A stretch of DNA of 64,000 bases from an uncultured Gemmatimonadales bacterium (lineage in GTDB: Bacteria > Gemmatimonadota > Gemmatimonadetes > Gemmatimonadales > Gemmatimonadaceae), in NCBI GenBank assembly GCA_963851265.1, contig CAWKNZ010000002.1, positions 1,664,001 to 1,728,000 of the forward strand, written 5' to 3'. The translations under genes and the position numbers were made by a program. This document shows positions 424 to 55,100 of this stretch, one piece after another. Below the pieces are notes generated by a model. It saw nothing but the letters and a program-made list of their open reading frames with translations, had not been told where the DNA came from and did not search any database. Position 1 is the first letter of the stretch, and every line of letters begins with the position of its first letter.

Positions 424-1008
424 TTGAAGGTCATCCTCGGCCTCGGCAACCCCGGCGAGGAGTACCGCGAGACGCGACACAACGTCGGCTGGGTGGTGCT
501 CGACCACCTGGCCGACGTTTGGCGTTTCGACGCGTGGCGCCGGGACGGCGACAGCCTCGTCACGTCGGGGCTCGTGGGCACGACCAAGGTGCGGCTGCTC
601 AAGCCGCAGACGTACTACAACGCGAGTGGGCACGCGCTCACGCCCTTCCTCCGCCGTCCGTTCTGGGCGCCGCAGACGGACCTGCTCGTGGCCTGCGACG
701 ACGTCGCGATCCCGGTCGGCACGTACCGGCTGCGCCCGCAGGGGAGCGCCGGCGGCAGCAACGGGCTCAAGTCGATCGAGCGTACGTTAGGCCACCAGCA
801 CTACCCGCGCCTCCGCGTCGGCACCAAACCGGCCGACGAGCGGCGGGAAGTCGGCAACCTCGTCGACTTCGTACTCTCGCCGTTCGACGCGATCGAGCGA
901 AAGGAGATCGCGGACCTCATGCCGCGCCTCACCGACGCGGTCGAGCTGTGGCTGCGCGACGGGATCGTCGCGGCGATGAACAAGCACAACGGTAAACAGT
1001 CGGCCTGA
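424..1008 (+). CDS. pth: Peptidyl-tRNA hydrolase
   Basis: GLGNPG.EY..TRHNVG, KPQTYYNASG, DD, GSAGG.NGLKSI motifs. Confidence 0.97.
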   Translation: MKVILGLGNPGEEYRETRHNVGWVVLDHLADVWRFDAWRRDGDSLVTSGLVGTTKVRLLKPQTYYNASGHALTPFLRRPFWAPQTDLLVACDDVAIPVGTYRLRPQGSAGGSNGLKSIERTLGHQHYPRLRVGTKPADERREVGNLVDFVLSPFDAIERKEIADLMPRLTDAVELWLRDGIVAAMNKHNGKQSA

Positions 1009-1031
1009 CGCCGGCCTCACGCAAGGACAGC

Positions 1032-2132
1032 ATGCTCCGCATCGGCATCGTCGGCCTGCCCAACGTGGGCAAGTCCACGCTCTTCAACGCGCTCACCTCG
1101 GCCGGCGTCCTCGCCGCCAACTACCCGTTCGCGACCAAGGACCCGAACGTCGGCCGGGTGAACGTCCCCGACCGCCGCCTCGACGTCCTGGCCGGCGTGG
1201 TCTCGCCGCAGCGCACCGTGCCGGCCGCGGTCGAGTTCGTCGATATCGCGGGGCTCGTGAAGGGCGCGTCGCAGGGCGAGGGGCTCGGCAACCAGTTCCT
1301 CGCCAACATCCGCGAGACCGACGCGATCGTGCACGTCGTGCGCTGCTTTGACGACGACGACGTGCTGCACGTGATGGGCTCGGTCGACCCCGCGCGCGAC
1401 CGCGAGACGATCGAATTCGAGCTCGCGCTCGCGGACCTGAGCGTCGTCGAGAAGCGGCTCGACCGCGCGCGCCGTGCGGCCAAGACCGGCGACAAGGACG
1501 CGCAGACCGAGGCGGGCGCCCTGGACCGGGCGCACGCATACCTGAAGGACGGCCGCGCGCTCTTCGAGGCGCACCTCGGCGCCGACGACCTCGCGCTGCT
1601 GCAGCCCCTCTCGCTGCTGACGACGAAGCCGATCCTGTACGCGGCCAACGTGACCGACGCGGAGTTGACGGGCGACGAGGGGCCGCACCTCACGGCGCTG
1701 CGGGCCGCCGTCGCGGCCGGCGGCGAGGTGGCCGAGGTGGTGCCATTCTCGGCGAAGATCGAGAGTGAACTGGCCGAGCTGCCCGAGGCGGACCGTGGCG
1801 AGTTCCTCGCGTCGTTAGGCCTGGAGAGCGCGGGGCTCGACCGCCTGATTCAGGCGGGGTACCGGCTGCTCGGGCTGCAGACGTACTTCACGGCGGGCGA
1901 GCAGGAGGTGCGCGCGTGGACCATCCACCGCGGCGACACCGCGCCGAAGGCGGCGGGCGTGATTCACACCGATTTCGAGCGCGGGTTCATCAAGGCCGAC
2001 ACGGTCGCGTACGGAGAGTTCGTGGCCAACGCCGGGTGGAAGGGAGCGCGGGAGAAGGGCGTGGTGCGGAGCGAGGGGAAGGAGTACGTCGTGCAGGACG
2101 GGGACGTGATGCTGTTCAAGTTCAACGTGTGA
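1032..2132 (+). CDS. ychF: Redox-regulated ATPase YchF
   Basis: GIVGLPNVGKSTLFNALT, DIAGLVKGASQGEGLGNQFL, IHTDFERGFIKA, EGKEYVVQDGD. Confidence 0.98.
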   Translation: MLRIGIVGLPNVGKSTLFNALTSAGVLAANYPFATKDPNVGRVNVPDRRLDVLAGVVSPQRTVPAAVEFVDIAGLVKGASQGEGLGNQFLANIRETDAIVHVVRCFDDDDVLHVMGSVDPARDRETIEFELALADLSVVEKRLDRARRAAKTGDKDAQTEAGALDRAHAYLKDGRALFEAHLGADDLALLQPLSLLTTKPILYAANVTDAELTGDEGPHLTALRAAVAAGGEVAEVVPFSAKIESELAELPEADRGEFLASLGLESAGLDRLIQAGYRLLGLQTYFTAGEQEVRAWTIHRGDTAPKAAGVIHTDFERGFIKADTVAYGEFVANAGWKGAREKGVVRSEGKEYVVQDGDVMLFKFNV

Positions 2133-4150: not shown

Positions 4151-4160
4151 TAATCCTTGC

Positions 4161-5486: not shown

Positions 5487-6014
5487 TCACGACGGTCCGT
5501 GCCGCCCGCCGCGTTGCACGGGCCGAGGATCCCAGCGTCGCGTTTCGAGCGCGGCCGGATCGGCGACCACGTCCGCACCGTCGAACCACTCCGCCGCGTC
5601 TTCCGGCACGCGCACCAAGTCGACCGGAGCGCGCCGCGTCACGCCGGCCAGCGCGTCGTCGACGAGTGCCGCGAAGTGGTGGAGGCTGACGTTCCATTTC
5701 GAGAACACGAAGTGCGTGTCCGGGTAGTCGCGCAGCAAGCGGCCTAACTTCTCGCGCGACGTCACGCCGCACTCGCCCCAGAACGTCACGCCGCGGCCCG
5801 TGTCGTCGAGCGCGTAGAGGTCCGGCTTGAACCGGCTCGGGAAGGGCAGCGCCTGCTCCACGCGCAGTTCCGGGTAGCGCGGCAGGTAGAGCGTCCAGAG
5901 CAGCGCCTTCTGGACCACGTGCTCCCCGCTCTCTTCCGGGCGCTTGACGAGCACGAGCGTGCGCCCGCGCGCGCGAACCGTCAGCTTGCGGCGGAGGCGG
6001 TCGGCGGGCGGCAT
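5487..6014 (-). CDS. YaeQ-like protein (PD-(D/E)XK-like fold)
   Basis: KRPEES.EH...KALL, KPDL...D...FWGECG....KL pattern. Confidence 0.65.
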   Translation of the reverse strand: MPPADRLRRKLTVRARGRTLVLVKRPEESGEHVVQKALLWTLYLPRYPELRVEQALPFPSRFKPDLYALDDTGRGVTFWGECGVTSREKLGRLLRDYPDTHFVFSKWNVSLHHFAALVDDALAGVTRRAPVDLVRVPEDAAEWFDGADVVADPAALETRRWDPRPVQRGGRHGPS

Positions 6015-6074: not shown

Positions 6075-7244
6075 CTACGCCATGCGGTGCGGAACGAACC
6101 GGCTCGTGTTCGTGGTGATCGGGCCGTCGGCCTCGCGGATCCCGACGCCTGCCGCCTCGCCGTGGACGACCCATGAGCCGAACACCGGGGTTCGACCATC
6201 GAACCGCGGCAGCGGCGCGATCGCCTGGTAGACGTAGCCTTCCGCACCGTACGCCCCGCCCGACCGCGCGATCTCGTCGCCGAACATCACGAGCGACACG
6301 TTCGCCCCCTCGCGCGAGAGCAGCGGCTTGCGCACGTACGCGTCCAGGAGCGCCTCGTCGAAGTAGGCGGGCAGCAGGTTGGGGTGGTCCGGGAACAGCT
6401 CCCACAGAATCGGCAGGATGCCCTTGTTGCTCAGGACGAGCTTCCAGGGGGGTTCGATCCAGCGCGTCCCATCGGCGGACGCGACGAGGTGGGCGCCGAA
6501 CGTCTCGCGCACCATCCACTCCCACGGGTACAGTTTGAACGCCGTTTCGATGGGCCCGTCGTCGCCGTCGACGAACTGCCCCCGCGCGGCGTCCCAGCCG
6601 ATCTCGGACACGAGTAGCTCGCGCGTCGCGACTCCGGCCTGCTCGGCCGTGTCGCGCAGGTACGCGACCGTTGCCGCGTCCTCGACGTCGTCGGCCGAGG
6701 CGAAGTGTACGGGGCCGCCCGCGCCGACGTTAGGCAGCCGCGGCGCGGCGAGGACGCGCGGCCAGGCGGCGACGAGGCGCTCGTGGATCGAGTTGAACTG
6801 GTCGCCCGACGGATCGACGTCCTGCAGCCAGTACCACTGTGCGACCGACGCCTCGACGAGCGCGGTCGGCGTGTCCGCGTTGTACTCGAGCAGGCGCGGA
6901 GGGGAGCGCCCGTCGTACGCGAGATCGAAGCGTCCGTAGAGGGTGGGCTCGGGCACGCCGGCCGCGCCGGCTCGCCAGCTCCGCTCCACGAGGGGCGCGG
7001 CCGCAGGCGGGATCGCCAGCTCCGCCCACCGCCGTTCGGCGATCACGTGGCTGACGGCCGCGAGGCAGAGGCGGTGCAGTTCGTTCGTCGCCGTCTCGAG
7101 CACGTCGACTTCAGCCGGATCGAGCACGTACGACGCGCGCTCGTCCCAGTACGGCTCGCCGTCGGCGCCCGTGTGGTGCGGCAAGCCGACCGACGCCACG
7201 CGCGCCTGCCAGTCCGCGCGCGGGGCGTGCGTTAGGCGCCGCAC
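6075..7244 (-). CDS. Glutathionylspermidine synthase family ATP-grasp ligase (YgiC-like)
   Basis: YWDE, LYGRFDLAYDG, LLEYNADTPT.L.EA, FKLYPWEW, EPPWK..LSNKGIL, SREGANV, SRFVPH; GTG start inferred. Confidence 0.93.
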   Translation of the reverse strand: MRRLTHAPRADWQARVASVGLPHHTGADGEPYWDERASYVLDPAEVDVLETATNELHRLCLAAVSHVIAERRWAELAIPPAAAPLVERSWRAGAAGVPEPTLYGRFDLAYDGRSPPRLLEYNADTPTALVEASVAQWYWLQDVDPSGDQFNSIHERLVAAWPRVLAAPRLPNVGAGGPVHFASADDVEDAATVAYLRDTAEQAGVATRELLVSEIGWDAARGQFVDGDDGPIETAFKLYPWEWMVRETFGAHLVASADGTRWIEPPWKLVLSNKGILPILWELFPDHPNLLPAYFDEALLDAYVRKPLLSREGANVSLVMFGDEIARSGGAYGAEGYVYQAIAPLPRFDGRTPVFGSWVVHGEAAGVGIREADGPITTNTSRFVPHRMA

Positions 7245-11002: not shown

Positions 11003-12727
11003 GTGCGGCGTAGTTTCTCCGCCGTGCCCGCCTCCGCCCGCTCCCCCCTCCCCCGCCGCACGCCCGCGCGCGTCCGCGCGACCGCGCGTCCGTTAGGCGC
11101 TGCGGCCGTGCTGCTCGCCGCCGTGCCGCTCGCGGCCGCGTGTGGGCGCGAGCGCGCGCTCGGCGACGCGCGCGCGGGCGGCGCGGTGGGACGCGGCACC
11201 GACGCCGTCGTGCTGCGCGCGCCGCGCGATGGCGGGCGGATGACCGCCGCGGTCTATCCGCGCCTGGACACGGTGGTGTGGCGGTCGGCCGACGCGTTGC
11301 CGGCCCTCGGCCGCGTGCTCGCCTTCGACCCGTCCGCGGGCCAGCTGGCCGCCGTGGACGCGCGCGGCGTTCCGACGCGCGTCGACCTCCGCCTCGGGAC
11401 GGCGCGCGCCCTCGGGCGCGCCCCGCTCGGCGCCGTGACGGCCGACGGCGGGTCGTTCTTCGGGCTCGACCGCGACGGGGCCGTCACGCGCCTAACGGAC
11501 GCCGGCGGGTCGTGGCGCGTGCGGCTCGCCGAGGTGCCGCAAGCGCTGTACGCGCGCCGCGACGGGTCGGTGCTCGCGGCGGCGGCGCGCGGCGGCGCGG
11601 GGCGCGTGTGGTTGCTGCGGCCGCCCGCCGCGGCGGCGGCCGAGTCGGCCGCCGTGCCCGGCGCGACGGAGCCGATCGTCACCGGCGCGACGGACGGCGT
11701 CTATTTCGCGGCGGGAGACGAGATCCTCGGCGTGCGCGGACGCGGGCTCCGGCCGGTCGCCGCGGTCTCGTTAGGCTCGGCCGTGCGGCGCGCCGTCGCG
11801 ACGCCGAGCGGCGACCGGCTGTACGTGCTCACGGCGCGCGGCGGCGAGGTGCGGGTCGTGGACCGCTACGCCGAGCGCGTGGCGGCGACGATTGCGCTCC
11901 CGGCCGACGCGCGCGACCTGCGCATGGATCCGCTCGGCCGCTACCTCGTCGTGCGTCCCGCGCGCGGCGATTCGGCGTGGGTGGTCGCCGTCGGCACCGA
12001 CCGCGTCGTCGGCGCGACGCGCTCCGACTGGCGCGACGATCTGCCGCTCGTGCTGCCCGACGGCGCGGTCGCTTCGGCCGTCGGCCCGGACGTGGCCATC
12101 GTCGACGGCGAGACGCTGCGCACGCGGCAGACGGTCGCCAACGGCGCGGCCGACGTGTGGCACGTGGTGCTGTGGAACGGGTTCCGCCCGCGCGCCGGCG
12201 CTCCGGCCCGGCCGGCGCCGGTGCACGACGAGACGCCGGACACGGCGCCGGAGAGCGCGCCGCCCGACACCGCCGGCCCCGCGCCCGACACCGCCGCGCC
12301 TCGTCGCGCCGACAGCACGCGCACGCCGCCCGATACTGGCGCGCCCCCGGCCACGCACGCCGCCGTCGCTGCCGCGACCACGCCGGTCAAGTACGTGCCG
12401 GCCGTGCGCGCGCAGCGCGCGCCCCAGACGGCGGTGCAGGTTTCGGACGGCGAGGTCGCCTCGCGCCCCACCACTGCGGGGCCCACGGCGGCGCGCGGGT
12501 ACACCGTGCAGTTCGCGGCGGCCCCCACCGAGCGTGAGGCGCTCGCGACCTTACGCCGCCTGGCCCTGCCCACGCCGGGCGGCCGAGTCGTGCCGCGAAC
12601 CGTCGACGGCAAGACGGTCTACCGGGTGGTCGCCGGGCCGTTCGCGACGCGCGCCGAAGCGGAGCGCGTGCGCCGCGCGGCGGGCGCGGCCGGTGCCGCG
12701 GCCTGGATTTACGGAGGCGCGCCGTGA
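11003..12727 (+). CDS. Lipoprotein with beta-propeller-like region, Pro-rich linker and C-terminal SPOR domain
   Basis: Lipobox LAAAC; ATPSGDRLYV repeat-like segment; YTVQFAA...YRVVAGPFATRAEAE; start uncertain. Confidence 0.75.
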   Translation: MRRSFSAVPASARSPLPRRTPARVRATARPLGAAAVLLAAVPLAAACGRERALGDARAGGAVGRGTDAVVLRAPRDGGRMTAAVYPRLDTVVWRSADALPALGRVLAFDPSAGQLAAVDARGVPTRVDLRLGTARALGRAPLGAVTADGGSFFGLDRDGAVTRLTDAGGSWRVRLAEVPQALYARRDGSVLAAAARGGAGRVWLLRPPAAAAAESAAVPGATEPIVTGATDGVYFAAGDEILGVRGRGLRPVAAVSLGSAVRRAVATPSGDRLYVLTARGGEVRVVDRYAERVAATIALPADARDLRMDPLGRYLVVRPARGDSAWVVAVGTDRVVGATRSDWRDDLPLVLPDGAVASAVGPDVAIVDGETLRTRQTVANGAADVWHVVLWNGFRPRAGAPARPAPVHDETPDTAPESAPPDTAGPAPDTAAPRRADSTRTPPDTGAPPATHAAVAAATTPVKYVPAVRAQRAPQTAVQVSDGEVASRPTTAGPTAARGYTVQFAAAPTEREALATLRRLALPTPGGRVVPRTVDGKTVYRVVAGPFATRAEAERVRRAAGAAGAAAWIYGGAP

Positions 12728-14223: not shown

Positions 14224-17200
14224 TGCGGCTCACGAAGCTGGAGCTGCACGGCTTCAAGTCGTTCGCGGACCACACGACGCTGCGCTTCGACGCCGGGGCG
14301 ACGGCCGTGGTCGGGCCGAACGGGTGCGGCAAGTCGAACGTGAGCGACGCGATCCGGTGGGTGTTGGGCGAGCAGCGCGCGCGCATGCTCCGCGGCGGCT
14401 CGATGACCGAGGTCATATTCCAGGGCTCGTCCGCGCGTCGGCCGGTGAACGTGGCCGAGGTGTCGCTGCACTTCGACAACAGCGAGGGCGTGCTGCCGGT
14501 CCCATTCCGCGAGGTCGTCATCACGCGACGGCTCTCGCGCTCTGGCGACAGCGACTACTTCCTGAACCGCGCGCCGTGCCGGCTGCGCGACGTGCAGGAC
14601 CTCGTCCGCGGCACCGGGTTGGGCGCGGACAGCGGCGTGGTGATCGAGAGCAAGATGATCGACGCGCTGCTCTCCGACCGCCCGGACGACCGTCGCGAGC
14701 TGTTCGAGGAGGCCGCGGGCGTGGGGCTCTACCGCGACCGCCGCCGCTCCACCGAGCGCCGGCTCGACGAGACGGCGCAGGACCTCTCGCGCCTCGACGA
14801 CCTCGTGAACGAGGTGGCGAGCCAGACGCGCGCGCTCGCGCGGCAACGTAAGCGCGCCGAGCGGCACGCCGAGCTGACGGCGCGTCGATTCGCGTTGGAG
14901 CTGACGCTCGCCGCGCGCGAGATGCTCGGGTGGCGCGACGAACTGCACGCGCTCGACGCGCGTCTCGCGGAGTTGCAGCTGCTGAGCCCGCAGGTCGCCG
15001 CGCAGCTCGCCGAGGCCGAGCGCACGCGCGAGACCGCGGCGGGCGCGCGCGCGGCGGCGGACGCGATGCGCCACGAGCTCTCGCGCATCACGGGATCGGC
15101 GCGCCAGGCCGTGCTCACGTTGCGAGGCGAACTGGCGGTGGCCGACGAGCGGCAGCGCAACGCCTCGTCGCGCCGGGCGCGGGCCGAGGAGGAGCGGCAG
15201 CAGGGGCAGGCCGCGGGCGAGCGGACGGCGGCCGAACGCGCGCATGCGGCCGCCGATCGGGCCCAGGCGGAGCGCGCAGTGGCCGACGCGGCCGCGGCGC
15301 TCGAGGAGCGCGTCGCGGTCGAAGACGAGACGCGCCGCGTAGTGGCTGCCACGCGCCAGCGGGCCGAACAGGCGGACCGGCAGGCACGCGACCTGCGCGA
15401 GCAGGCGCGCCGCCTCGAGATCGACCGCGACGCGGCCGTACGCGAGCAGCAGGAGACGGCGGCGCGCCTCGCCTCGCTCGACCGCGACCTCTCGGCCGCG
15501 CGCGAGCGGCTCGCCGTCGTACGCCGTGACGCGGAGCATGCCGCGCGTGCCGTCGCACTCGCCCGCGAGGAGGCGCTCGTCGCCCAGCAGGCCGTGGACG
15601 AGGCGCGCCAGGGTGTCCGCGCGGCGCGCGAGGCGGACGCCGGCGCGCGGGCCGAGCTGGCGCGCGCGGAGCAGGAGCACACCGCGTTAGGCGCCCGCGC
15701 GCACGCGCTCGAGGCGCTCGAGCGCGACCGGGTCGGGCTCGCCCCGGCCGCCGCGCGGCTGCTCAAGGAGCGGGCGCGATTCGGCGACGGTGCGGTGCTC
15801 GGGCCGCTGTCGGACTTCCTCGACGCCGACGCCGACGCGGCGGCCGACGTCGAACGGTTTCTCGGAGCGAACCTCTACGCGGTCGTCGTGCGCGACCGGG
15901 CCGCGGCCGACGCGGTGCGCGCGTGGCACGCCGCGGCCAACCCGGGACCGCTATTGCTGCTCCCGGCCGACGCGGCAGGCGCGCGCCCGTCCGACGCGGG
16001 CGCTGCGTCGGCGGCCGGCGGGCTCGCGGAGCGCGTGCGCGCCGGCGGCGACGCGGCCGGGTGGGCGCGCGTGCTGCTCGGCGGCGTCGAGTCGTTAGGC
16101 GGTGGCGCGTTCGCCGACGCGCGCGGCGCGGTGCTGCTGCCCGGCGCGGCGGTCGGGCCGGGCACGCTGCGTCGCCGCGCCGAACTGGCGGAGCTGCGCA
16201 CGCAGCTCGACGCGCTCGAGGCGGTGCGGGAGCGCGCGCGCGCGGCCGTCGTAGCCGCGCGCTCCGCGCTGGCCGACGCGGAGCGCGAGCAGGCCTCGGC
16301 CGCCGAGACGCTCACCGTCGCCCAGCAGGACGCGCGGCGCGCCGACGACGTCGCGGCGGACCTCGCGCGCCGGCAGCACCGCGCGGAGCGCGAACTCGCC
16401 GACGCCGAGCACCTCGTCGGCCGGCTCGGCGCGCGGATGGAGGAGCTGCGCGCGCGCGCGGCGCAGCTCACCGAGCGCGCGACTTCGGCGGTCGAGCAGG
16501 CGGCGCAGCGCGACGCGGACTCGGGCGAGGCCCGCGCGGCGCTCGGCGAGGCCGAACACGCCCTGGAAGCAGCGCGCGAGGAGCGCACCGTGTGGCAGGT
16601 CGAGCAGGCGCAGTCGCAGGCGCGCCTGCAGTCGGCCGCGGACCGGGAACGCCGGCTCGCGGGCGAGGTGGCGCAGGCCGCCGCGCGCGTCGAGCAGATC
16701 ACCCGCGAGCTGCTCACGCTCGACTCCGCCGACGGCGAGCTGGCCCAGCACGCGGCCGAATGGCGCGTCACGCTCGACGCGCGCGAGGCGGAGCTGGGGG
16801 ATGCGGAATCGCGGCTGGCCGAGGCCGAGGAGGCACTCGCCGCGACGACGCACGCGGTGAACGACGCGGCGGAGTCGCTCGACGCGATTCGCCGCGACAG
16901 CACCCGACTCGCCGACGAGATGCACGCGGCCGCGCTGCGCCACACGCAGCTGGCCGGGCGGCGCGACGCCCTGCGCAGCCGGTTGGAGACCGAGTGGCGC
17001 CGGCCACTCGACGAGCTGATCGCGCGCCACGAATCGGTCGAGGGCGAACCCGAGGCGCTCGCGCGCGAGCTCGGCGAGGTGCGCTCGCAGCTCGAGCAAC
17101 TGGGGGTGGTGAACCCGCTCGCGGTCGAGGAACACGAGGAGGAAGTGCGACGGCTCGACTTCCTCACCGGGCAGCGGGCGGACCTGCAGCAGGCCCGGGT

Positions 17201-17779: not shown

Positions 17780-18574
17780 GTGGCAGGCGCGTTCGCGATT
17801 CGCCTGACGACGATCGGCACCGGTACGGTCCCGCCTTCGGCCACCCGCGTCAATCCCGGGCATCTCGTCGAAGCGGGCGCCGTGCGGCTGCTCATGGATT
17901 GCGGCAGCGGCGTCGTGCACCGGATGGCGACGCTCGGCGTCGACTGGGCCTCGATCACGCACGTCGCGCTCACGCACTTCGACCAAGACCACACGAGCGA
18001 CGTGGCCGCGCTGTTCATCGCCTGGCGGTACGGGCAGCTGCCGCCGCGCGCGGCCCCGGTGGTGGTGCTGGGACCGGTCGGCACGCGCGGGCTGCTCGAC
18101 CGCCTCGCGGCGGCGCTCTGGGCGACGCTGCTCACGCCCGGGTTCCCGGTCGAGGTGGTCGAGCTGGCGGCGGGCGCGACGCACGTTCTCGGCGACGGCG
18201 TCGTGCTCTCGACGCGCGCGGTCACGCACCAGCCGGAGAGCATCGCCTACGCGGTCGAGCACGCGGGGCGCCGCGTGGTCTACACCGGCGACACCGCGCC
18301 CGACCCGACGTTAGGCGCCTGGGCGCGCGGCGAGGGCGGGTGCGACGTGCTCCTCACGGAATGTTCGCTCCCCGAGACGATGGCCGTGCCGTCGCACCTG
18401 ACGCCCGAGAGCGTGGGCGACCTCGCCGCTGCGGCCGACCCGGGGCTGCTGGTGCTGGCGCACCTGTACCCGCCCGTGGAGGCGCTCGACCTGCCCGCGA
18501 TAATCGGCGGGCGATGGCGGGGACGCGTGGTGGTGGCGCACGACGGCTGGTCGGTGGAGTTGCCGCCGCGGTAA
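17780..18574 (+). CDS. MBL-fold metallo-hydrolase (RNase Z/ElaC-like)
   Basis: IGTGT, LLMDCGSG, THFDQDH, VVYTGDT, SHLTP, LAHLYP, VAHDG. Confidence 0.85.
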   Translation: MAGAFAIRLTTIGTGTVPPSATRVNPGHLVEAGAVRLLMDCGSGVVHRMATLGVDWASITHVALTHFDQDHTSDVAALFIAWRYGQLPPRAAPVVVLGPVGTRGLLDRLAAALWATLLTPGFPVEVVELAAGATHVLGDGVVLSTRAVTHQPESIAYAVEHAGRRVVYTGDTAPDPTLGAWARGEGGCDVLLTECSLPETMAVPSHLTPESVGDLAAAADPGLLVLAHLYPPVEALDLPAIIGGRWRGRVVVAHDGWSVELPPR

Positions 18575-19722: not shown

Positions 19723-20436
19723 ATGACATCGTCATTCGGATTCACCCGCGGCGCGTTGCCCGCGGGCCTGCTCGCCGCCGCTGCGCTCGCGGCGGGCCTA
19801 ACGGCATCGCCGGCCGGCGCGCAGGACCCGGCGTCGGCCGCGATCGACCGCGCCGCGCAGGCGTTCCGCGCGGCGCGCACCATCCACGCGACGTTCGAGC
19901 AGACGCTCAGCAATCCCGCGACGGGTACGACGAACACCACGTCGGGCGACCTCTCGCTCGCGCAGCCCAACCGCGTCGCGCTCCGCTTCAACAACGCGGG
20001 CGGCGATCGCGTGATCGTCGACGGCCGCACCGCGTGGGTGTACCTGCCGAGTGCGGCGCCCGGGCAGGTGATGAAGCTGCCCGCCCGCAGCACCGGCATC
20101 TCGGGCGTCGAGAGCGTGAGCGAGCTGCTGGCCTCGCCCCGCTCGAGGTACACCGTCGCCGATGGGGGCGCCGCAACGGTCGGCGGCCGGGCGACGCGCG
20201 TGGTCGTGCTCACGCCGAAGGCCGACGGCCAGCCCGTGACGAAGGCGCGCGTGTGGGTGGACGACCAGGACGGCGCCGTGCGCCAGATGGAACTGACCGA
20301 CGCGAACGGGCTGGTCCGCTCGCTGCGCATGACGACGTGGGAGCCCAATGCGAAGCTCGCGCCGTCGACGTTCACGTTCGAGGTCCCGAGCGGGGTTCGC
20401 GTCGTCGATCGGGCGCCGGCGCCGACCGGCCGCTGA
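19723..20436 (+). CDS. lolA: Outer-membrane lipoprotein carrier LolA family protein
   Basis: Signal peptide; ATFEQT, G.L...PNR, VIVDG..AWVYLP, FTFEVPSGVRVVD. Confidence 0.8.
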   Translation: MTSSFGFTRGALPAGLLAAAALAAGLTASPAGAQDPASAAIDRAAQAFRAARTIHATFEQTLSNPATGTTNTTSGDLSLAQPNRVALRFNNAGGDRVIVDGRTAWVYLPSAAPGQVMKLPARSTGISGVESVSELLASPRSRYTVADGGAATVGGRATRVVVLTPKADGQPVTKARVWVDDQDGAVRQMELTDANGLVRSLRMTTWEPNAKLAPSTFTFEVPSGVRVVDRAPAPTGR

Positions 20437-20449
20437 CCCGCGTTCGGCG

Positions 20450-21346: not shown

Positions 21347-21384
21347 CCCGCCGCGCCGCACGCGCGTCGCCCGGCGCGTACGGC

Positions 21385-25081: not shown

Positions 25082-26156
<1,075 letters not shown>

Positions 26157-33885: not shown

Positions 33886-35299
33886 CGGTCGTTCCCGGGT
33901 AGTAGGTCTGGAGGATGTGGCGGAAGTCCTGCCCGGCGCGCGCCCGCCCGATCGCGCCCCACTGGCACATGCCGACGCCGTGCCCGTTGCCACGGCCGCG
34001 GAGCACGAGGCGCAACACGCGCCCGTCGTCGCCGCCGGTGGCCGCGGCGGAAAAATAGGTACTGGGGAGGATGTCGGTCCCCACGCCGGTCTCGCGGCCG
34101 AGGGGGCTGCGCATGGCGAACCGGATCGCGTTGCCGCGCAGGACGAAGCGGCCCGCGTCGGTGGTGACCGTCACCGACGCGGTGCGTCCCGACGGCGTCC
34201 GCTCGCCCGCCCGCCACTCGCGCACCGCGCCCAGCGGACCGCCTAACGTCGTGCCCGCGCGTCCGTCCGCCGGTGCCGCGTAGCGCCGCAGGTACCGCGC
34301 GAGCACCTCGTCGAGCGCGTCGGCGTCCCACGACCGCTCCCAGTGCGCGCGCGGGGCGATGTCGCAGTACGCGCGGTCCTCGCCCGGCACCGAGTCGCTC
34401 ACGCGCCGCAGGTACGGCGCGCGCTCGGCGCCCCACACCTCGGAGGGGTCGGCGGTGTTCCCGCCGCACGCCGAGTAGTACGGGGCCGACACGACCGCGC
34501 CCTCGTAGCGCAGCACGAGCCCCGTGGTCGCGAGCAGCGCACGGTCCGCGTTGGGCTGCTCGACGTTGACGCCGCCGTAGAGCTGGTCCTCGGTGGTCGC
34601 GCGCACGTCGTAGGGCGCGGCCGCGCGCGCGACCGCCGCCGACCGCGGCAGGAACTCCGCGATGCGGCTGTAGAGATAGCTGCGCGCGGTGACCGCCTGC
34701 GCTTCGAGCGCGGCATGGTCGCCGGCGCGCTCGGTAGGCAATTCCAGCGGCAGCACGCCGCGCAGGTACTCCTCGCCGCCAAGGCGGTTCACCACGGTCA
34801 CGGCGCCGCTCGCCGGATGCAGCCAGAGCGCGCCGCGGTAGCGGTGGCCGGCGTAGCGCACGAACCCGTCGTCGGCGTTCTCGGGGCGCGCGACGAGCGG
34901 GCCGTCGACCCAGGGGGTCGCTGCGCCCGACGCGCCGCGCGCACGCACCCGTCCGTCGCGCACCTCCACCGTCCACGCACTTCCGCCGGGTGCGTGCGCG
35001 AGCACCCCGCCGTTCGCGTCCGCGAACACCCAGGGCGCGGTCGCGCTCACCTCGGGCGCACGTACGGCGAATGCGACGGCCACGCGCACGACGCGCCCGC
35101 CCGTCGGGACGGCGACGCCGCCGTCGGAAGTCGTCGTGCTCGCGTTCGGGCGCGACGCGCCGCCGGCCTGCGCGCTCCGCGCCGGGTCGCGCGTCGCAGC
35201 CTCGTGCGCGGGCGCCGGTCCCGCGTGACACGCGAGCAGCGCCGCGCCCGCGAGAGCCGCCGCGCCGGCCCCGACGCGCGCGGTGCGCGCCCGGGTCAA
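33869..35299 (-). CDS. SpoIID/LytB domain lipoprotein (lytic transglycosylase-like)
   Basis: YRG, VN....EEYLRGV...E, ALEAQAVTARSY, DQLYGG, GRGNGHGVGMCQWGA, ILQTYYPG. Confidence 0.92.
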   Translation of the reverse strand: MTRARTARVGAGAAALAGAALLACHAGPAPAHEAATRDPARSAQAGGASRPNASTTTSDGGVAVPTGGRVVRVAVAFAVRAPEVSATAPWVFADANGGVLAHAPGGSAWTVEVRDGRVRARGASGAATPWVDGPLVARPENADDGFVRYAGHRYRGALWLHPASGAVTVVNRLGGEEYLRGVLPLELPTERAGDHAALEAQAVTARSYLYSRIAEFLPRSAAVARAAAPYDVRATTEDQLYGGVNVEQPNADRALLATTGLVLRYEGAVVSAPYYSACGGNTADPSEVWGAERAPYLRRVSDSVPGEDRAYCDIAPRAHWERSWDADALDEVLARYLRRYAAPADGRAGTTLGGPLGAVREWRAGERTPSGRTASVTVTTDAGRFVLRGNAIRFAMRSPLGRETGVGTDILPSTYFSAAATGGDDGRVLRLVLRGRGNGHGVGMCQWGAIGRARAGQDFRHILQTYYPGTTVDPVE

Positions 35300-36705
35300 C
35301 GGCCGTAGCTGCCGATGGTCGTGGCCGCGCCGACTCCGGAGCCGGCCAGGGGCAGCGCGCGCGGCGCGCGCCGCGGCACCACCGGCAGCACGGGTCCGAC
35401 CGCGGTCGCGTGGAAGTCGTAGTCGTCGACCACCTCGTCGACGACGACCTCGACGAAGCTGCCCGGGACCGCGGGGGTGTCGACCCACGTCACGCCGTCC
35501 ACGTCGTCCGCCTGCCACGGCGCGCGGGCCTGCGCCGGCGCGCCGTCGGCCGCGGCGCGGTCGACGAGCACGGTCGCGCGCGTGCCGATGCGCTCCTCGT
35601 ACCGTTCGGCGGTGATGGCGCGCTGCAGCTCGGTCAGCCGCTCCAGCCGGTCGCGCTTGACCACGTCGGGCACGTCGTCGGCGAGGGCGTACGCGCGCGT
35701 GCCCTCCTGCGGCGAGTAGGCGAAGGCGCCGACGCGGTCGAAGCGCGCCTCTTCCAGAAAGTCGCAGAGCGCGAGGAAATCGGACTCGGTCTCGCCGGGG
35801 AATCCGACGATGCACGTGGTCCGGATCGCGACCCCCGCCACCGCGTCGCGAAACCGCGCGAGCTTCTCGCGCATCGTCCGCTGCCGCTCGGGGCGCCGCA
35901 TCCGCGCGAGTACGGCGTCGCTCGCGTGCTGGATCGGCATGTCGAGGTAGCGCAGCACGCGCGGGTTGGCCGCCACGACCTCCAAGAGGCGCGGCGTGAT
36001 CCCGGTCGGGTACAGGTAGAGGTTGCGGTACCATGCGACGTCCGTCTCGGCCAGCAGCGCCTCGAGCAGGTCGGGAAGCCGCGCCCCGTCGGCGCGGTCG
36101 CGCCCGTAATGCGCCAGGTCCTGCGCGACGAGGTTGATCTCGCGCGCGCCCTGCAACTCCAGCAGCTGCGCCTCGCGTACGACGTCGGCCACCGCGAACG
36201 AGCGGTGCCGCCCGCGCATGAGCGGGATCGCGCAGAACGCGCACCCGTGATCGCACCCCTCGCTGATCTTGAGGTAGCGCACGTGCGGCAGGTCGCCGCC
36301 GTAGAGGCGCACGCCCGGGTGCTCGCTCAGCGCGTCGGGTGAGACGAGCCCGCGAGCCGCGAGCTGCGGCACGAGCTGGTCGACGTCGCTCGCGCCGAGG
36401 AACAGGTCGACCTCGGGCAGCGCCTCGGCCAGCTCCTCGCGGTGGCGCTGCACCATGCAGCCCACCGCCACCACCGCCTGACACGCGCCGTCGACCTTGA
36501 GACGCCCGGCGCCGACGAGCGCGTCGATGCTCTCCTGCTTGGCCGCGTCGATGAAGCCGCACGTGTTGACCAGGATCACCTCGGCCTCGCTCGGGTCGCC
36601 CGTCGGCGTGGCGCCGTGCGCGACGAGCTCGGCGAGGTAGCGCTCCGAGTCGACGGTGTTCTTGTCGCAGCCGAGCGTGAGCAGGGCGACCTTGACGCCT
36701 AACAT
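35296..36705 (-). CDS. rimO: Ribosomal protein S12 methylthiotransferase
   Basis: LGCDKNTVDSE, NTCGFIDAAKQES, YLKISEGCDHGCAFCAIP, TRAM-like tail. Confidence 0.95.
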   Translation of the reverse strand: MLGVKVALLTLGCDKNTVDSERYLAELVAHGATPTGDPSEAEVILVNTCGFIDAAKQESIDALVGAGRLKVDGACQAVVAVGCMVQRHREELAEALPEVDLFLGASDVDQLVPQLAARGLVSPDALSEHPGVRLYGGDLPHVRYLKISEGCDHGCAFCAIPLMRGRHRSFAVADVVREAQLLELQGAREINLVAQDLAHYGRDRADGARLPDLLEALLAETDVAWYRNLYLYPTGITPRLLEVVAANPRVLRYLDMPIQHASDAVLARMRRPERQRTMREKLARFRDAVAGVAIRTTCIVGFPGETESDFLALCDFLEEARFDRVGAFAYSPQEGTRAYALADDVPDVVKRDRLERLTELQRAITAERYEERIGTRATVLVDRAAADGAPAQARAPWQADDVDGVTWVDTPAVPGSFVEVVVDEVVDDYDFHATAVGPVLPVVPRRAPRALPLAGSGVGAATTIGSYGR

Positions 36706-48915: not shown

Positions 48916-48941
48916 GGGGTGGCGGAGCGTCGGCGTGCGGA

Positions 48942-51898: not shown

Positions 51899-51925
51899 TC
51901 TCCGTTAGGCACACTGCGCTCCGCC

Positions 51926-53341
51926 ATGCCCATCGCGACCGTCAACCCGGCCACCCGCGAGGTGGTCCGCACCTTCCCCCCGGACGACGACGCGGCGGTC
52001 GAGCGCGCCCTCGCCGCGGCCTCCGAGACCGCGCGGACGTGGCGCACGGTCCCCGCCGCCGACCGCGCCGCGGTCGTCGCGCGCGCTGGCGACCTGCTCG
52101 ACGCGCGGCGCGACGCGTACGCGCGGCTCATGACGCTCGAGATGGGCAAGCCGATCCGCGCGGCGCGCGACGAGGCGGCGAAGTGTGCGCTCGCCTGCCG
52201 GTTCTACGCGGAGCACGGGCCGCGTTTCGTCGCGCCCGAGACGCTCTTCGACGACGCCTCGGGCAGCGGGCAGGTGCGCTACCAACCGTTAGGCGTCGTG
52301 CTCGCCGTGATGCCGTGGAACTTCCCGTTCTGGCAGGTCATCCGCTTCGCCGCGCCGGCGCTCGTCGCCGGGAATGTCGGGCTGCTGAAGCACGCGTCCA
52401 ACGTGCCGCAGTGCGCGCTCGCCATCGCCGAGCTGTTCCGCGACGCGGGCGCGCCGGCCGGGGCCTTTCAGACCCTGCTGGTCGACGCGCCGCGCGTGGG
52501 GCCGATCATCGCCGACCCGCGCGTCGCGGCCGTGACGCTCACAGGGAGCGAGGGCGCGGGCGCGTCCGTCGGCGCGGCCGCGGGCGCCGCGCTCAAGAAG
52601 ACCGTGCTCGAACTGGGCGGCAGCGACGCGTTCGTCGTCCTCGCCGATGCCGACGTCGAGGCGGCCGCCCGCGCCGCGGTCACCGCGCGGACGATCAACA
52701 ACGGGCAGTCGTGCATCGCGGCCAAACGGTTCGTCGTCGAACAACCGGTGTACGACGCGTTCGTCGACCGGCTCGCGGCGGGAATGCGCGCGCTCCGCGT
52801 AGGAGACCCGTTCGACGAGGAGACGGCGGTCGGTCCGCTCGCCACGGCGCAGATCCGCGACGACATCGCCGACCAGGTCCGCCGGACGCTCGACGCCGGC
52901 GCGCGTCTGGTCTGCGGCGGGGCGGCGCCCGACGGCGCCGCACTCGCCGGCGGGTTCTACTATCTGCCAACCGTGCTCGCCGACGTGCCGCGAGCCTCCC
53001 CGGCGGCCCAGGAAGAGACGTTCGGGCCCGTGGCGGCCGTCCTCCGCGCCGCCGACGCGGACGAGGCGCTCACCATCGCCAACGACACTCCGTACGGCCT
53101 GGGCGCGGCGGTCTGGACGCAAGATCCGGCCGCGGCCGAGCGGTTCGCCGCGGGGCTCGAGGCCGGGTCGGTGTTCGTGAACGGTATGGTCGTCTCGGAC
53201 CCGCGGCTCCCGTTCGGCGGGATCAAACGCTCGGGCTACGGACGCGAGTTGAGCGCGGTCGGACTGCGCGAGTTCACGAACGTGAAGACCGTGCGCGTCG
53301 CCCAAGGTGGCGCCGGCGCGCCGGGCGGCGCGACCGAGTAG
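51926..53341 (+). CDS. NAD(P)-dependent succinate-semialdehyde dehydrogenase family
   Basis: VMPWNFPFWQV.RFAAP, LKHASNVP, LELGGSD, NNGQSCIAAKR. Confidence 0.92.
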   Translation: MPIATVNPATREVVRTFPPDDDAAVERALAAASETARTWRTVPAADRAAVVARAGDLLDARRDAYARLMTLEMGKPIRAARDEAAKCALACRFYAEHGPRFVAPETLFDDASGSGQVRYQPLGVVLAVMPWNFPFWQVIRFAAPALVAGNVGLLKHASNVPQCALAIAELFRDAGAPAGAFQTLLVDAPRVGPIIADPRVAAVTLTGSEGAGASVGAAAGAALKKTVLELGGSDAFVVLADADVEAAARAAVTARTINNGQSCIAAKRFVVEQPVYDAFVDRLAAGMRALRVGDPFDEETAVGPLATAQIRDDIADQVRRTLDAGARLVCGGAAPDGAALAGGFYYLPTVLADVPRASPAAQEETFGPVAAVLRAADADEALTIANDTPYGLGAAVWTQDPAAAERFAAGLEAGSVFVNGMVVSDPRLPFGGIKRSGYGRELSAVGLREFTNVKTVRVAQGGAGAPGGATE

Positions 53342-53372
53342 GCGCGAGTCGCGGCGCCGCGAGGACGCCGCG

Positions 53373-55100
53373 TCAGGAGCGTGCCGGCAATACGGGCCGC
53401 AGCACGCGCCGCCACCAGCGCGCGCGCTGTTCGACGCGCTCCGCCGCCGCGCGGATGCGCCGCCACGCGCCGAGCATCGCCCCCGCGTCCGCGAAGCGCC
53501 GCTCCGGCTCGGGGTCGAGCGCGCGTCGCAGGAACTCGGCGAGCGCGGTCGGGAACCGGTCGAGCGGCGGTGCGCCGCGCATCTGCGACGCGAGCACCGC
53601 GGGTCCGTCGAGCCCGGGGAACGGCGGCTGCGCCTCGAGCGCGTAGTACAGGATCGCGCCCATCGCGAACACGTCCACCGTCGCGCCCTGCGGCTCGCCG
53701 AGCAGCTGCTCGGGCGGGGCGAACGCCGGGGTGCCCGACGCACCGGTGACCTCCTCGCCTAACGCACTCGCGATGCCGAAGTCCGACACGCGCCAGCGGC
53801 GGTAGCGGTCGATGAGCAGGTTCTCGGGCTTGAGGTCGCGGTGCACCACGCCGATCGCGTGCGCCGCGGCGAGCCCCTCGAGCACGAATTCGATCTGCGC
53901 GCCCACGTCGACGAGCGTGCGCGCCCCCGCGCGCCGCACGAGCTCCGCGAGCGAGCCGCCGTCGGCGAGCTCCATCGTGTACCAGCTCACCCCGCCGCGC
54001 GAGTCGAAGTCGAAGATCGGGACGAGCGCCGGGTGCGCGAGCTGCGCGGCGAGCGTCGCCTCGCGCCGGAACCGCGCCACCGCGTCGGCGTCGCGCGCCA
54101 CGTGCGCGTGCAGCATCTTGAGCGCGACCTCGCGTCCCAGCGAGAGGTCGCGCACGCGCCACACCGAGCCGAACGTGCCGGCGCCTAACGGTGCGAGCGT
54201 CTCGTAGTCGTCGCCGGTGGCCCAGCGCAGCCGCGCTTCGGCCGTGAGCGCGACGGTCTCGTCGGTCGCGCCCTCGGTCGCGACGATGGGCGTCGGCCGC
54301 ACCGCGATGCCGCGGTCGAGCGCGCGCACCATCGCCGCGACCGACGCGAACCGGCGCGTCGGGTCGGGGTCGAGCGCCCGCTCGATCACGTCGGCCGCGC
54401 TCGCCGGACACTCGGGACGCAGCAGGCGCACGGGCGGCACGTCGTCCGCCGGCGGCAGTTCGCCGGTGAGCGCGAAGAACGCCACCGCCGCCAGCTGCCA
54501 CTGGTCGGTGCTCACGGTGGGCGCCCACCGGCCACGCTCCTCCGGCGCCCGCGGAATCGTGACCGGGTCGGGCGAGATCGCCGCGGGGACGCGATCGCGC
54601 GGGACGGCCCATTGCCACCCCAACAGCCACAGCCGGCCGGACGAGGTCAGCCACAGGGTGCTCGGCGACACCGCCCCGTGCGGCCCGCCGCTGTCGTGCA
54701 GGTACGACACCACCGCGCCGGCCTCGCGCAGCAGCCGGAGCACCGCCGGGATCCCCTCTGGCCCGTGGCGCCCGACACGCTGGTGGAGCGGCTCTCCGCC
54801 GATCCAGCGGCGCAGGTACCCCGGCCCGCGTCGCGGCTCGCGCGCCGGCACCCAGTAGTGATACGTCGTCGGCACCGTCGGGTGACTGCGGTGCGCCAGC
54901 GCGCGCGCCTCGGCCAGCAGCCACGGCGCGTGCGCCGGATCGGGCGCGGTTACGAGCGACAGCGACCGCCCGAGCGCGTCGATGATCTCCTGGTAGTGCC
55001 GGTACTGCTCCTCGCGCGCGTCACTCCCCCACGCCCAGCCCGGCGGTAACTGCCACGACGCCAGGTGCGGTGGCAAGCGCGGGGAGGGGGCAGGAGGCAT
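53373..55100 (-). CDS. Tandem Ser/Thr kinase (N-terminal pseudokinase plus C-terminal intact kinase)
   Basis: C-terminal LGAGTFG, VALK, HRDLKPEN, DFG, PPE; N-terminal copy has HGAVSPST/LGW/APE. Confidence 0.88.
   Translation of the reverse strand: MPPAPSPRLPPHLASWQLPPGWAWGSDAREEQYRHYQEIIDALGRSLSLVTAPDPAHAPWLLAEARALAHRSHPTVPTTYHYWVPAREPRRGPGYLRRWIGGEPLHQRVGRHGPEGIPAVLRLLREAGAVVSYLHDSGGPHGAVSPSTLWLTSSGRLWLLGWQWAVPRDRVPAAISPDPVTIPRAPEERGRWAPTVSTDQWQLAAVAFFALTGELPPADDVPPVRLLRPECPASAADVIERALDPDPTRRFASVAAMVRALDRGIAVRPTPIVATEGATDETVALTAEARLRWATGDDYETLAPLGAGTFGSVWRVRDLSLGREVALKMLHAHVARDADAVARFRREATLAAQLAHPALVPIFDFDSRGGVSWYTMELADGGSLAELVRRAGARTLVDVGAQIEFVLEGLAAAHAIGVVHRDLKPENLLIDRYRRWRVSDFGIASALGEEVTGASGTPAFAPPEQLLGEPQGATVDVFAMGAILYYALEAQPPFPGLDGPAVLASQMRGAPPLDRFPTALAEFLRRALDPEPERRFADAGAMLGAWRRIRAAAERVEQRARWWRRVLRPVLPARS

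Follow-up and report, generated by a model that had tools for sequence, protein, structure and literature searches.

An octamer in excess on both strands of a Gemmatimonadaceae genome: a possible uptake-sequence-like self tag

Introduction

Why does one octamer recur on both strands across the core genes of a soil bacterium of the Gemmatimonadaceae (phylum Gemmatimonadota)? The word is CGTTAGGC and its reverse complement is GCCTAACG; the two differ, which makes the word asymmetric and non-palindromic. Its core is the 7-mer GTTAGGC/GCCTAAC and its fuller form is (C/T)GTTAGGC. The initial annotation of the window, the whole stretch of 64,000 nucleotides that was analysed, had proposed it as a candidate uptake or chromosome-signal sequence. 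To our knowledge, detailed study of short words that are hyper-abundant in a genome has been limited to two kinds, namely HIP1 and the uptake sequences found in two families of proteobacteria, and neither uptake sequences nor competence have been described in Gemmatimonadota. The DUS of the Neisseriaceae is read by the minor pilin ComP, the USS belongs to the Pasteurellaceae, and it was thirty years before a function of HIP1 started to come to light. A literature search found no published description of the word and none that connects gemmatimonads with uptake sequences. The reading that we tentatively favour, at a probability of about 40%, is a self tag resembling uptake sequences, which drive, or selection acting on DNA fragments, has spread.

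Results

Copies of the word in the window

The search of the window returned 26 exact copies divided equally between the strands (13 each), all at the positions that had been annotated by eye, together with two copies of the 7-mer core only. None of 100 dinucleotide-preserving shuffles reached 26 copies (mean 1.04, maximum 5). The gene placement was borne out for pth, ychF, smc, prfA, the S41 protease (ctpA-like), hydantoinases A and B and the Ser/Thr kinase. The mixture of frames was likewise as described, with 18 sense copies reading xCG-TTA-GGC, three antisense copies reading CTA-ACG and one reading CCT-AAC. Two further copies form stop codons, and the copy at 51903 is intergenic, as had been noted, as is the one at 11091. 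The copies are as follows.

785..792, +, pth, sense ACG-TTA-GGC (T-L-G)
1813..1820, +, ychF, sense TCG-TTA-GGC (S-L-G)
5742..5748, -, 7-mer core only, GCCTAAC then T
6728..6735, +, glutathionylspermidine-synthase-like gene, antisense CCT-AAC (P-N)
7230..7237, +, the same glutathionylspermidine-synthase-like gene, antisense CTA-ACG (L-T)
11091..11098, +, intergenic, upstream of the SPOR-domain gene
11490..11497, -, SPOR-domain gene, antisense CTA-ACG
11769..11776, +, SPOR-domain gene, sense TCG-TTA-GGC
15685..15692, +, smc, sense GCG-TTA-GGC, kept in 4/4 congeners aligned
16093..16100, +, smc, sense TCG-TTA-GGC, kept in 3/4 congeners
18309..18316, +, MBL-fold hydrolase gene, sense ACG-TTA-GGC
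19796..19803, -, lolA, antisense CTA-ACG
20448..20455, +, DUF2520 gene (- strand), the TTA of the word giving its TAA stop
21383..21390, -, end of the S41 protease gene, the TAG of the word being the stop codon
22372..22379, -, S41 protease gene, sense GCG-TTA-GGC
25671..25678, -, prfA, sense ACG-TTA-GGC
27380..27387, +, MBL-fold gene, sense CCG-TTA-GGC
28223..28230, -, hydantoinase B, sense
28520..28527, -, hydantoinase B, sense
30147..30154, -, hydantoinase A, sense
30846..30853, -, hydantoinase A, sense
32456..32463, -, Lnb_N-domain gene, sense
34241..34248, -, SpoIID-like gene, sense
36697..36703, -, 7-mer core only, GCCTAAC then A
51903..51910, +, intergenic
52287..52294, +, aldehyde dehydrogenase gene, sense
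53757..53764, -, Ser/Thr kinase gene, sense
54183..54190, -, Ser/Thr kinase gene, sense

Genome-wide excess and frame independence

The enrichment extended beyond the window. A total of 1,396 copies were found in the 4.60-Mb genome (1 per 3.3 kb), every one of the 12 contigs carrying 0.27-0.41 copies per kb. An order-3 Markov model predicted 58 copies, or 15.6 once the word was masked. The word was the top over-represented 8-mer of the genome, its excess lying between 24-fold and 90-fold according to the null used. The excess also held against a codon-aware null, as TTA was used at 528 of approximately 1,900 xCG-Leu-GGC sites compared to 1% of all Leu codons, and GGC directly followed 690 of the 886 in-frame TTA codons sampled. 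TTA is nonetheless an ordinary Leu codon here because the genome has a tRNA-Leu(taa).

Occupancy of peptide-compatible sites was similar in the sense frame (527/3058, 17%) and the antisense frame (121/682, 18%), and the remaining two open frames were likewise in excess (43/1108 and 22/2375). The 375 copies without an assignment in the frame model comprised 86 TAA stops, 55 TAG stops and 234 intergenic or unclear copies. The word was thus not restricted to any frame: it occurred in the four open ones, in the two that give stop codons and in intergenic DNA. In ychF, S/T-L-G was encoded at the position of the word by 45 of 46 relatives, and 41 of those 45 wrote the Leu as CTC or CTG. The frame occupancy, the stop codons and the TTA-GGC counts support the earlier argument that frame independence points to double-stranded DNA, and not to protein or RNA, as the cause. 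The origin of the word lies at the DNA level and is independent of orientation.

Orientation of the copies

The strand symmetry seen in the window held genome-wide, with 708 forward and 688 reverse copies. Replichore polarity, for which the initial annotation had left room, was not found, and in 100-kb bins the orientation of the copies followed gene strand. Intergenic copies agreed with the local gene majority in 123 cases and disagreed in 111, and where gene-strand bias was strong they split 27:22. In favour of a polar signal of the Chi, KOPS or SRS kind are the length of the word (8 bp), its location in core genes and a density comparable to that of E. coli Chi. However, the equal totals, the gene-following orientation and the 123:111 split refute such polarity for this genome, and we give this explanation practically no chance. 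Apparent one-strand runs of copies were an artefact of listing order.

Conservation and distribution among relatives

In a sample of four congeners at 78-83% nucleotide identity, copies were retained in 128 of 203 pairwise cases (63%) versus 24% for all 8-mers. The word was enriched in 46 of 151 sampled Gemmatimonadaceae genomes and in none of 92 genomes from other families of Gemmatimonadota. Close relatives showed a present/absent contrast, with about 4,000 copies versus 66 within one genus.

Spacing and flanking sequence

The flanks of the genomic copies showed no conservation beyond codon periodicity. A dispersed repeat of the REP or MITE type was ruled out, as no sequence was conserved well beyond the short core. 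For spacing, an equal number of copies was dealt over 7,571 opportunity sites in 500 trials, and close pairs were depleted: 53 gaps below 300 bp were observed against 122 +/- 9.7 expected, and none of the 500 trials gave so low a count. Pairs below 300 bp were inverted in 26 cases and direct in 27, which shows that close inverted pairs were not favoured. Pooled samples of relatives had 15 gaps below 100 bp compared to 39.7 expected, with the strongest deficit in the densest genome (G012), while three of the eight samples (G004b, G001 and G051), all from around parB, showed no close-pair deficit. The largest word-free stretch was core origin-proximal DNA and not acquired DNA or an island.

The close-pair deficit would also fit the footprint, or a saturating benefit per segment, of an intracellular protein that binds the word, either a nucleoid-organising factor or one by which a defence or repair nuclease tells self from non-self, with each copy kept by selection for that function. 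The copies are conserved, the presence and absence between close relatives is as in accessory systems, and for HIP1 its authors argue for selection and nucleoid structure (excerpts of PMC5861425). Against such a protein site, the analysis yielded no candidate protein, two thirds of the Gemmatimonadaceae do without the trait, and the word has no orientation preference, while the signals read by translocating nucleases and pumps are polar. Known architectural or Chi-type signals also fall far short of a 90-fold excess across thousands of sites. Overall, the protein site is unlikely but keeps an appreciable chance.

Competence genes and candidate readers

The genome encodes ComEC, DprA, a ComEA-type HHH protein, a PilQ-like secretin and ComM. 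The ComM-type gene that had been noted in the window was confirmed at 48942-50495, but the hinted link with competence gained nothing from it, since ComEC, the PilQ-like secretin and ComEA occurred alike in word-rich and word-poor genomes. ComEC was present in 5/5 genomes tested (three word-rich and two word-poor), ComEA in 5/5 and the PilQ-like secretin in 148 of 151 family genomes. As the competence machinery is equally present in word-poor relatives, it supports nothing specific. The ComP-type DUS receptor domain (Pfam ComP_DUS) had no match in this genome (G000), and just two of the 151 genomes, both of them word-poor, passed its cut-off.

Alternatively, a DNA methyltransferase may target the word, and biased repair or methylation-dependent processes may have spread it, as has long been proposed for HIP1. 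A candidate enzyme is an Eco57I/MmeI-like N6 methylase (1,141-1,177 aa), the gene of which adjoins a SNF2-type helicase gene in this genome. Enzymes of this family read asymmetric 6-8-bp words, many of which end in AC like GCCTAAC. HIP1 provides a precedent, being recognised by two methylases and having a transformation effect that is reportedly methylation-dependent (excerpts of PMC13756078; bioRxiv 10.1101/2024.09.10.611283). However, homologues of the methylase at approximately 50% identity were present in 5/5 genomes tested, including two word-poor ones, and Vsr and C5 methylase were each found in 0/3 word-rich genomes. No single-mismatch neighbour of the word was depleted, unlike the outcome of very-short-patch repair, and the close-pair deficit is not predicted by a per-site repair bias. 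Recognition sites of restriction systems are moreover usually avoided, whereas the word is enriched. A methylase origin is considered improbable. None of the candidates, namely ComEC, PilQ, ComEA, a ComP-type pilin, Vsr, C5 methylase and the Eco57I/MmeI-like methylase, separated rich from poor genomes.

Identity with the integron attC core

The core GTTAGGC/GCCTAAC is letter for letter the same as the boundary boxes (R'/R'') of attC sites in this genome and its relatives, a match that the initial annotation had not mentioned. The attC consensus is GTTRRRY for the core R' and RYYYAAC for the inverse core R''; the chance of a random 7-mer fitting GTTRRRY is about 0.001-0.002. Sites bounded by GCCTAAC...GTTAGGC were found, for example, at C10:194558 and C10:202950 (97 nt), at C10:203674 (119 nt) and at C6:1592 adjoining intI. 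The cargo of the C10 array was that of typical cassettes (BrnT, DUF433/DUF5615 and DUF4926/DUF6883). The attC architecture is an imperfect inverted repeat of inverse core and core, about 55-140 nt long, which forms a hairpin and occurs in cassette arrays. Only a handful of sites, within C10:188936-203800 and at C6:1592, had it, and more than 99% of the copies were lone duplex words without partner box, hairpin or cassette.

The dispersed copies could accordingly be integrase-related sites (attG-like landing pads, decoys or a by-product of the integrase or a related recombinase), the word being the R-box duplex that integron integrases recognise. Besides the shared 7-mer and the cassette array, the same boxes delimit cassette arrays in another family of the order (G015:C95, with GCCTAAC at most 150 nt upstream for 21 of 26 GTTAGGC) and were also present in metagenomic contigs whose GC content is 30-64%. 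Genomic attG sites are reported as places of cassette integration, and transformation as a supply of cassettes for the integrase (both from excerpts of PMC12614218). On the other side, integrase presence (IntI matches at E<=1e-30) did not track enrichment, with 32/46 rich and 59/94 poor genomes positive, and the intI of this genome is split by approximately 2.1 kb encoding a large serine recombinase. The dispersed copies lack partner box and hairpin, and copies occur within essential genes, in which cassette insertion would be harmful. Insertion or excision by an integrase would also seem to offer no visible step that turns neighbouring sequence into the word. This explanation is rated as distinctly unlikely.

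Uptake alone, however, leaves the identity of the word with the attC core unexplained. An uptake or self-recognition component tuned to the attC core might be the reader. Word-rich Gemmatimonadaceae would in that case preferentially import or spare cassette-boundary DNA, and the spread of the word would be the footprint of drive arising from that preference. We regard this combination as a long shot.

Discussion

The self-tag reading rests on the DNA-level origin of the word, its orientation independence, short-range spacing, conservation and patchy distribution, and on the competence gene set. Under it, (C/T)GTTAGGC would be a lineage-specific 'self' word, read as double-stranded DNA in either orientation and written wherever it is tolerated: synonymously in S/T/P/A-Leu-Gly, Pro-Asn, Leu-Thr and Val-Arg, in TAA and TAG stops and in spacers. 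The maintaining force would act on segments of a few hundred bases and not on single sites, and the likeliest is the one at work on DNA uptake sequences. Some component of the uptake or recombination route would favour word-bearing fragments, so that alleles lacking the word would give way to those that have it. This would be molecular drive, whether or not selection also favours exchange among conspecifics. From these features we infer that the word is read during uptake or recombination. Several observations stand against uptake: the competence genes do not discriminate, the ComP domain is absent here, the word is patchy in the family, the core is identical to attC, three of the eight samples of relatives lack the close-pair deficit and the largest word-free stretch is core DNA.

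A third hyper-abundant word, found this time in another phylum whose members are abundant in soil, would show such tags to be a general solution. The clean contrast within one genus offers comparative genomics a direct route to the reader. The attC-core identity raises a possible link between transformation and cassette exchange, and an attC-tuned reader, if true, would mean a mechanistic coupling of natural transformation with integron cassette traffic. In practical terms, the word marks DNA native to these lineages and could aid binning, host assignment and the design of transforming DNA.

Comparison with known systems

Like Chi, KOPS and SRS, the word is an 8-mer in core genes at similar density, but it has no strand polarity and a far larger excess. 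With integron attC it shares a 7-mer identical to the R'/R'' pair, whereas its copies are mostly lone and its enrichment does not track integrase presence.

HIP1 (GCGATCGC) of cyanobacteria is, in excerpts of PMC5861425 and PMC13756078, an octamer in 15- to 300-fold excess that is conserved both inside ORFs and in the DNA between them, is described as neither a peptide nor an RNA signal and is now proposed to act in transformation. The word resembles it as an over-represented octamer that is not a peptide or RNA signal. However, HIP1 is a palindrome with two known methylases and is near-universal in its phylum, while the word is asymmetric, has a methylase only as a candidate and is patchy within one family.

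At 7-8 bp the word is shorter than DUS and USS, has no extended flank consensus and belongs to another phylum. Its genome has no ComP-type domain to match that of DUS, close inverted pairs are not favoured, and its presence is not family-wide (46/151, with 0/92 in the rest of the phylum). Uptake sequences are described in excerpts as having no orientation bias, even spacing and positions mostly inside ORFs (PMC1939737), with spacing tied to conversion tracts and high conservation in the core genome (PMC2397512). The word shares with them a short exact form, a copy number in the hundreds to thousands, occurrence on both strands with no polarity along the chromosome, a placement mostly in genes in tolerant frames but also in spacers, a spacing more even than chance and conservation of individual copies.

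Abundance and form of the octamer

The octamer CGTTAGGC (hereafter the word) was present in the window in 26 exact copies, 13 per strand, all at the positions reported in the initial annotation. That annotation was also correct on the additional 7-mer copies at 5742 and 36697, on the host genes and on the reading frames. Dinucleotide-preserving shuffles of the window contained a mean of 1.04 copies and a maximum of 5. In the window, 18 of the 26 copies were read in sense as xCG-TTA-GGC, while antisense copies were read as CTA-ACG (n = 3) or CCT-AAC (n = 1). The copies that supplied stop codons or were intergenic were as follows.

Word copies in the window that supply stop codons or are intergenic
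20448: TAA stop codon
21383: TAG stop codon
11091: intergenic
51903: intergenic

Window positions 34249-51902 formed a 17.6 kb stretch of lower GC (0.70-0.72) without the octamer and with a single 7-mer core copy at 36697. The genes of this stretch were ordinary (MiaB-like, sigma factor, signal peptidase, two TonB-receptor-like, NtrC-type regulator and ComM). A small Com_YlbF-family gene was found at 23807-24160 on the minus strand, with tmk and prmC/prfA on either side.

The genome of the window (G000) is an assembly of 4.60 Mb in 12 contigs with 73% GC, in which the window is C2:1664001-1728000. The excess reached past the window, with 1,396 genomic copies and 0.27-0.41 copies per kb on each contig. 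An order-3 Markov model predicted 58 copies, or 15.6 with the word masked, and the word was the top over-represented 8-mer. It was unremarkable under the maximal-order model because its own sub-words were equally enriched. The specific part of the word was the 7-mer core GTTAGGC (1,762 genomic copies), and GTTAGG accounted for 1,848 of the 1,925 genomic TTAGG. The core followed C 1,396 times, T 243 times, G 69 times and A 54 times. The remaining single-base variants of the word were enriched only 1- to 3-fold and none was depleted. Across the genome, GC-richer DNA carried more of the word: density was 0.25 per kb where local GC was 68-70% and climbed to 0.48-0.66 per kb where it was 76-78%. 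The flanks of the copies showed codon periodicity only and no further conservation genome-wide, which ruled out the candidate explanation that the word belongs to some longer repeat.

Reading frames and codon context

Frames were assigned with a crude codon-usage model built from long ORFs, whose non-overlapping gene set covered only 69% of the genome. A total of 767 copies were sense xCG-TTA-GGC, 30 sense xxC-GTT-AGG-C, 167 antisense G-CCT-AAC-G and 57 antisense GC-CTA-ACG. The 375 copies outside these four open frames comprised 86 TAA stops, 55 TAG stops and 234 intergenic or unclear copies. In a gene sample, 61 of 291 TAA and 44 of 496 TAG stops lay in the word. TTA made up 1% of leucine codons and was followed by GGC in 690 of 886 in-frame occurrences; in xCG-Leu-GGC contexts, TTA was used 528 times compared to 1,102 for CTC.

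The word occupied 527 of 3058 (17%) peptide-compatible sites in the main sense frame and 121 of 682 (18%) in the main antisense frame. The minor frames carried it at 43 of 1108 and 22 of 2375 sites, both well over the codon-usage expectation. Since occupancy was equal in both main frames, the sense excess of 797 to 224 reflects which peptides are common and not a strand-specific reader, that is, a putative molecule recognising the word. At the ychF copy, the S/T-L-G peptide was kept in 45 of 46 relatives, with codons that were mostly CTC or CTG. A translation- or RNA-level signal was ruled out as antisense frames, stop frames and spacers were equally affected and a tRNA-Leu(taa) gene was found in G000. 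The excess persisted against a codon-aware null and was seen in antisense frames, stop codons and spacers, which upheld the proposal of a DNA-level rather than protein-level cause. Overall, the word is a strong and real genome signature at the DNA level.

Orientation and spacing

The word occurred 708 times on the forward and 688 times on the reverse strand of G000. Replichore polarity, which the initial annotation had linked to a Chi/KOPS-like class, was absent: in 100-kb bins, the orientation of the word tracked the local gene strand. Intergenic copies agreed with the local gene majority in 123 cases and disagreed in 111 (27 to 22 where gene-strand bias was strong). Chi/KOPS polarity was ruled out by this gene-following orientation together with the intergenic split, and long one-stranded runs of the word were explained by listing order or by integron cassette arrays.

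Copies avoided each other at short range. When 1,396 labels were distributed among 7,571 opportunity sites, comprising the word and its synonymous sister words, 122 ± 9.7 gaps shorter than 300 bp were expected compared to 53 observed, and 0 of 500 trials were as low. Direct and inverted close pairs (<300 bp) were equally rare (27 and 26). In pooled samples from five relatives, 15 gaps below 100 bp were found against 39.7 expected, and 41 below 200 bp against 75.5 expected. The deficit was clearest in G012, the densest genome, and was missing from three samples around parB (genomes G004, G001 and G051). The distance over which copies exclude each other was roughly 0.3-0.5 kb. Such a deficit is predicted if a benefit or drive saturates within each DNA segment, and is not predicted by a per-site mutational or repair bias.

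Word-free origin region

The longest interval lacking the 7-mer core was C1:182877-227962 (examined as loci L199-L201, G000:C1:182001-228500), a 45 kb stretch in which about 17 copies were expected. It was origin-proximal core DNA with mnmG/gidA, parA, parB and mnmE, and its identity to congeners was ordinary (80-81%), which ruled out a divergent import. The counterpart region held about 15 copies in G004 and about 10 in G001, and G051 and G012 showed normal word density around parB; these four genomes ruled out a conserved word-free feature. The stretch may have been imported from a word-poor congener, may be a chimera of the assembly, or may reflect local exclusion.

Distribution and conservation among relatives

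All of the nearest YchF relatives came from MAGs labelled Gemmatimonadaceae, Gemmatimonadales or Gemmatimonadetes, and only 2 of 41 of their loci of at least 8 kb carried 0.2 copies per kb or more. An even family sample of 151 genomes from 77 genera was tallied, with genomes called word-rich when the count was more than twice that of a reversed-word control. Word-rich genomes numbered 46, 11 were intermediate and 94 (word-poor) were at <0.6 of the control, and the highest densities in the family were about 1.3 per kb. Members of one genus could differ in count (3,896 and 4,141 copies vs 66; 858 and 940 vs 173). Within-genus contrasts set G060 and G160 apart from G118, and G097 and G145 apart from G027. 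None of 92 phylum genomes from other families was at or above the control count. The tallies take in the unpublished genomes G011, G045, G046, G144, G203 and G232, none of which was word-rich and on which alone no statement is based.

No substitute "dialect" word was found in a 200 kb sample of the word-poor G006. In 183 kb of G118, a word-poor congener, there was likewise no substitute and the top words were parts of a MITE-like composite repeat. This repeat was dispersed (L047, L049, L052, L054 and L056), with a unit made of a AGGGTTCA pair or a TGCTTTCT pair spaced 14 nt, and the inverted pair about 60-80 nt further on.

Four congeners shared synteny with window bases 14201-34200, with an identity of 78-83%. 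Among the 35 word sites in this alignment, seven were shared by all four genomes and 15 occurred in one alone. Pairwise, 128 of 203 word copies (63%) were retained, compared to 24% for all 8-mers in the same alignment. A congener without a copy as a rule had a synonymous spelling there, e.g. CGCTCGGC, CGTTGGGC or GCCGAGCG.

Candidate readers of the word

None of the presence-tested candidates parted word-rich from word-poor genomes. ComEC and ComEA (199 aa) were each present in 5 of 5 genomes tested and a PilQ-like secretin in 148 of 151, with no difference between rich and poor. A small secreted HHH protein was rejected as it was missing in two word-rich genomes, and the ComP_DUS domain was rejected as it occurred in 2 of 151 genomes, both word-poor. 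A rival reading of the word, as an intracellular binding or self-recognition site, is rather unlikely.

For a methylation-linked word, a drive by Vsr and a C5 methylase was rejected, with each found in 0 of 3 word-rich genomes tested. A methylase-motif screen of G000 ORFs gave 48 candidates, and among the 20 of these that were picked by motif type and run against Pfam there was one DNA methylase, located as follows.

L222:7720-13511 (G000:C7:579720-585511): Eco57I/MmeI-like N6 methylase, 1,141 aa, adjoining a 759-aa SNF2/ResIII helicase

All five relatives tested had homologues of this methylase at about 50% identity, several of them carrying one in-frame stop. The methylase and helicase pair is conserved family-wide and not mobile; the methylase was rejected as a discriminating reader, being present in 5 of 5 genomes tested. 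A methylation-linked word is quite improbable.

Integrons and viral contigs

The attC core consensus is GTTRRRY. The attC sites of G000 had the boundaries GCCTAAC...GTTAGGC, in an array at C10:188-204 kb and at C6:1592, adjoining the integron integrase gene. Cassette arrays delimited by the same boxes also occurred in a different family of the order, as well as on metagenomic contigs with a GC content of 30-64%. The probability of the word core matching the consensus by chance was about 0.001-0.002; a chance origin of this shared spelling is unlikely, and a causal link would be hypothetical. The comparison of flanks between attC boxes and dispersed copies used a sample that was skewed by the search pattern and symmetric by construction.

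Integron integrase matches were found in 59 of 94 word-poor and 32 of 46 word-rich genomes, and this presence without association ruled out the integrase as a determinant of the enrichment. The intI of G000 (TIGR02249) was in two pieces in locus L223 (G000:C6:1-9000; intI region 3005-6044).

L223:5244-6044, minus strand: intI positions 2-265
L223:3005-3166, minus strand: intI positions 260-313
Between the pieces, about 2.1 kb, plus strand: large serine recombinase gene (Resolvase, Recombinase, Zn ribbon)

From this gene layout, the serine recombinase DNA looks like an insertion interrupting intI. The cassette array (L224, G000:C10:186001-206000) and intI were on separate contigs, and the cassettes were largely toxin-antitoxin-like pairs (BrnT, DUF433/DUF5615, DUF4926/DUF6883), some duplicated. 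An integron-linked site is quite improbable.

A scan of viral contigs for two same-strand copies 300-330 apart gave at least 120 stretches, and the 80 loci fetched were mostly cassette arrays. The IMG/VR contigs L136, L147, L077, L089 and L112 were integron cassette arrays though filed as viral, with one-stranded GTTAGGC every 250-900 bp and GCCTAAC 55-134 nt upstream. In another IMG/VR contig, L105 (15,179 bases, 63% GC), 19 copies were dispersed over both strands (1.25 per kb), and a recognisable domain (HTH) was found in only 1 of its 17 ORFs. L105 may represent a phage or prophage whose host is word-rich.

Comparison with known systems

No published description of the word was found in the literature on the 8-mer, on GTTAGGC with integron or on Gemmatimonadetes integrons and attC; the matches listed for the 8-mer or for GTTAGGC with integron were mostly primers or unrelated, and those for Gemmatimonadetes integrons and attC were on other subjects. 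No literature joining Gemmatimonad with "uptake sequence" was found.

Of the readings considered, an uptake-sequence-like self tag is the most likely, with a probability of about 40%. Excerpts of PMC1939737 and PMC2397512 describe uptake sequences as lacking orientation bias, evenly spaced and largely within ORFs, with spacing linked to conversion tracts and strict core-genome conservation. HIP1 resembles the word in how large its excess is, in being conserved and in having no role at the level of genes (PMC5861425), and is itself now proposed as an uptake signal in PMC13756078, where it was analysed by phylogenetic profiling. Unlike the situation with Neisseria-type uptake sequences, G000 has no ComP-type receptor; the word, unlike HIP1, is non-palindromic; and its occurrence is restricted to part of one family. 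The word is best regarded as resembling both uptake sequences and HIP1 while belonging with neither.
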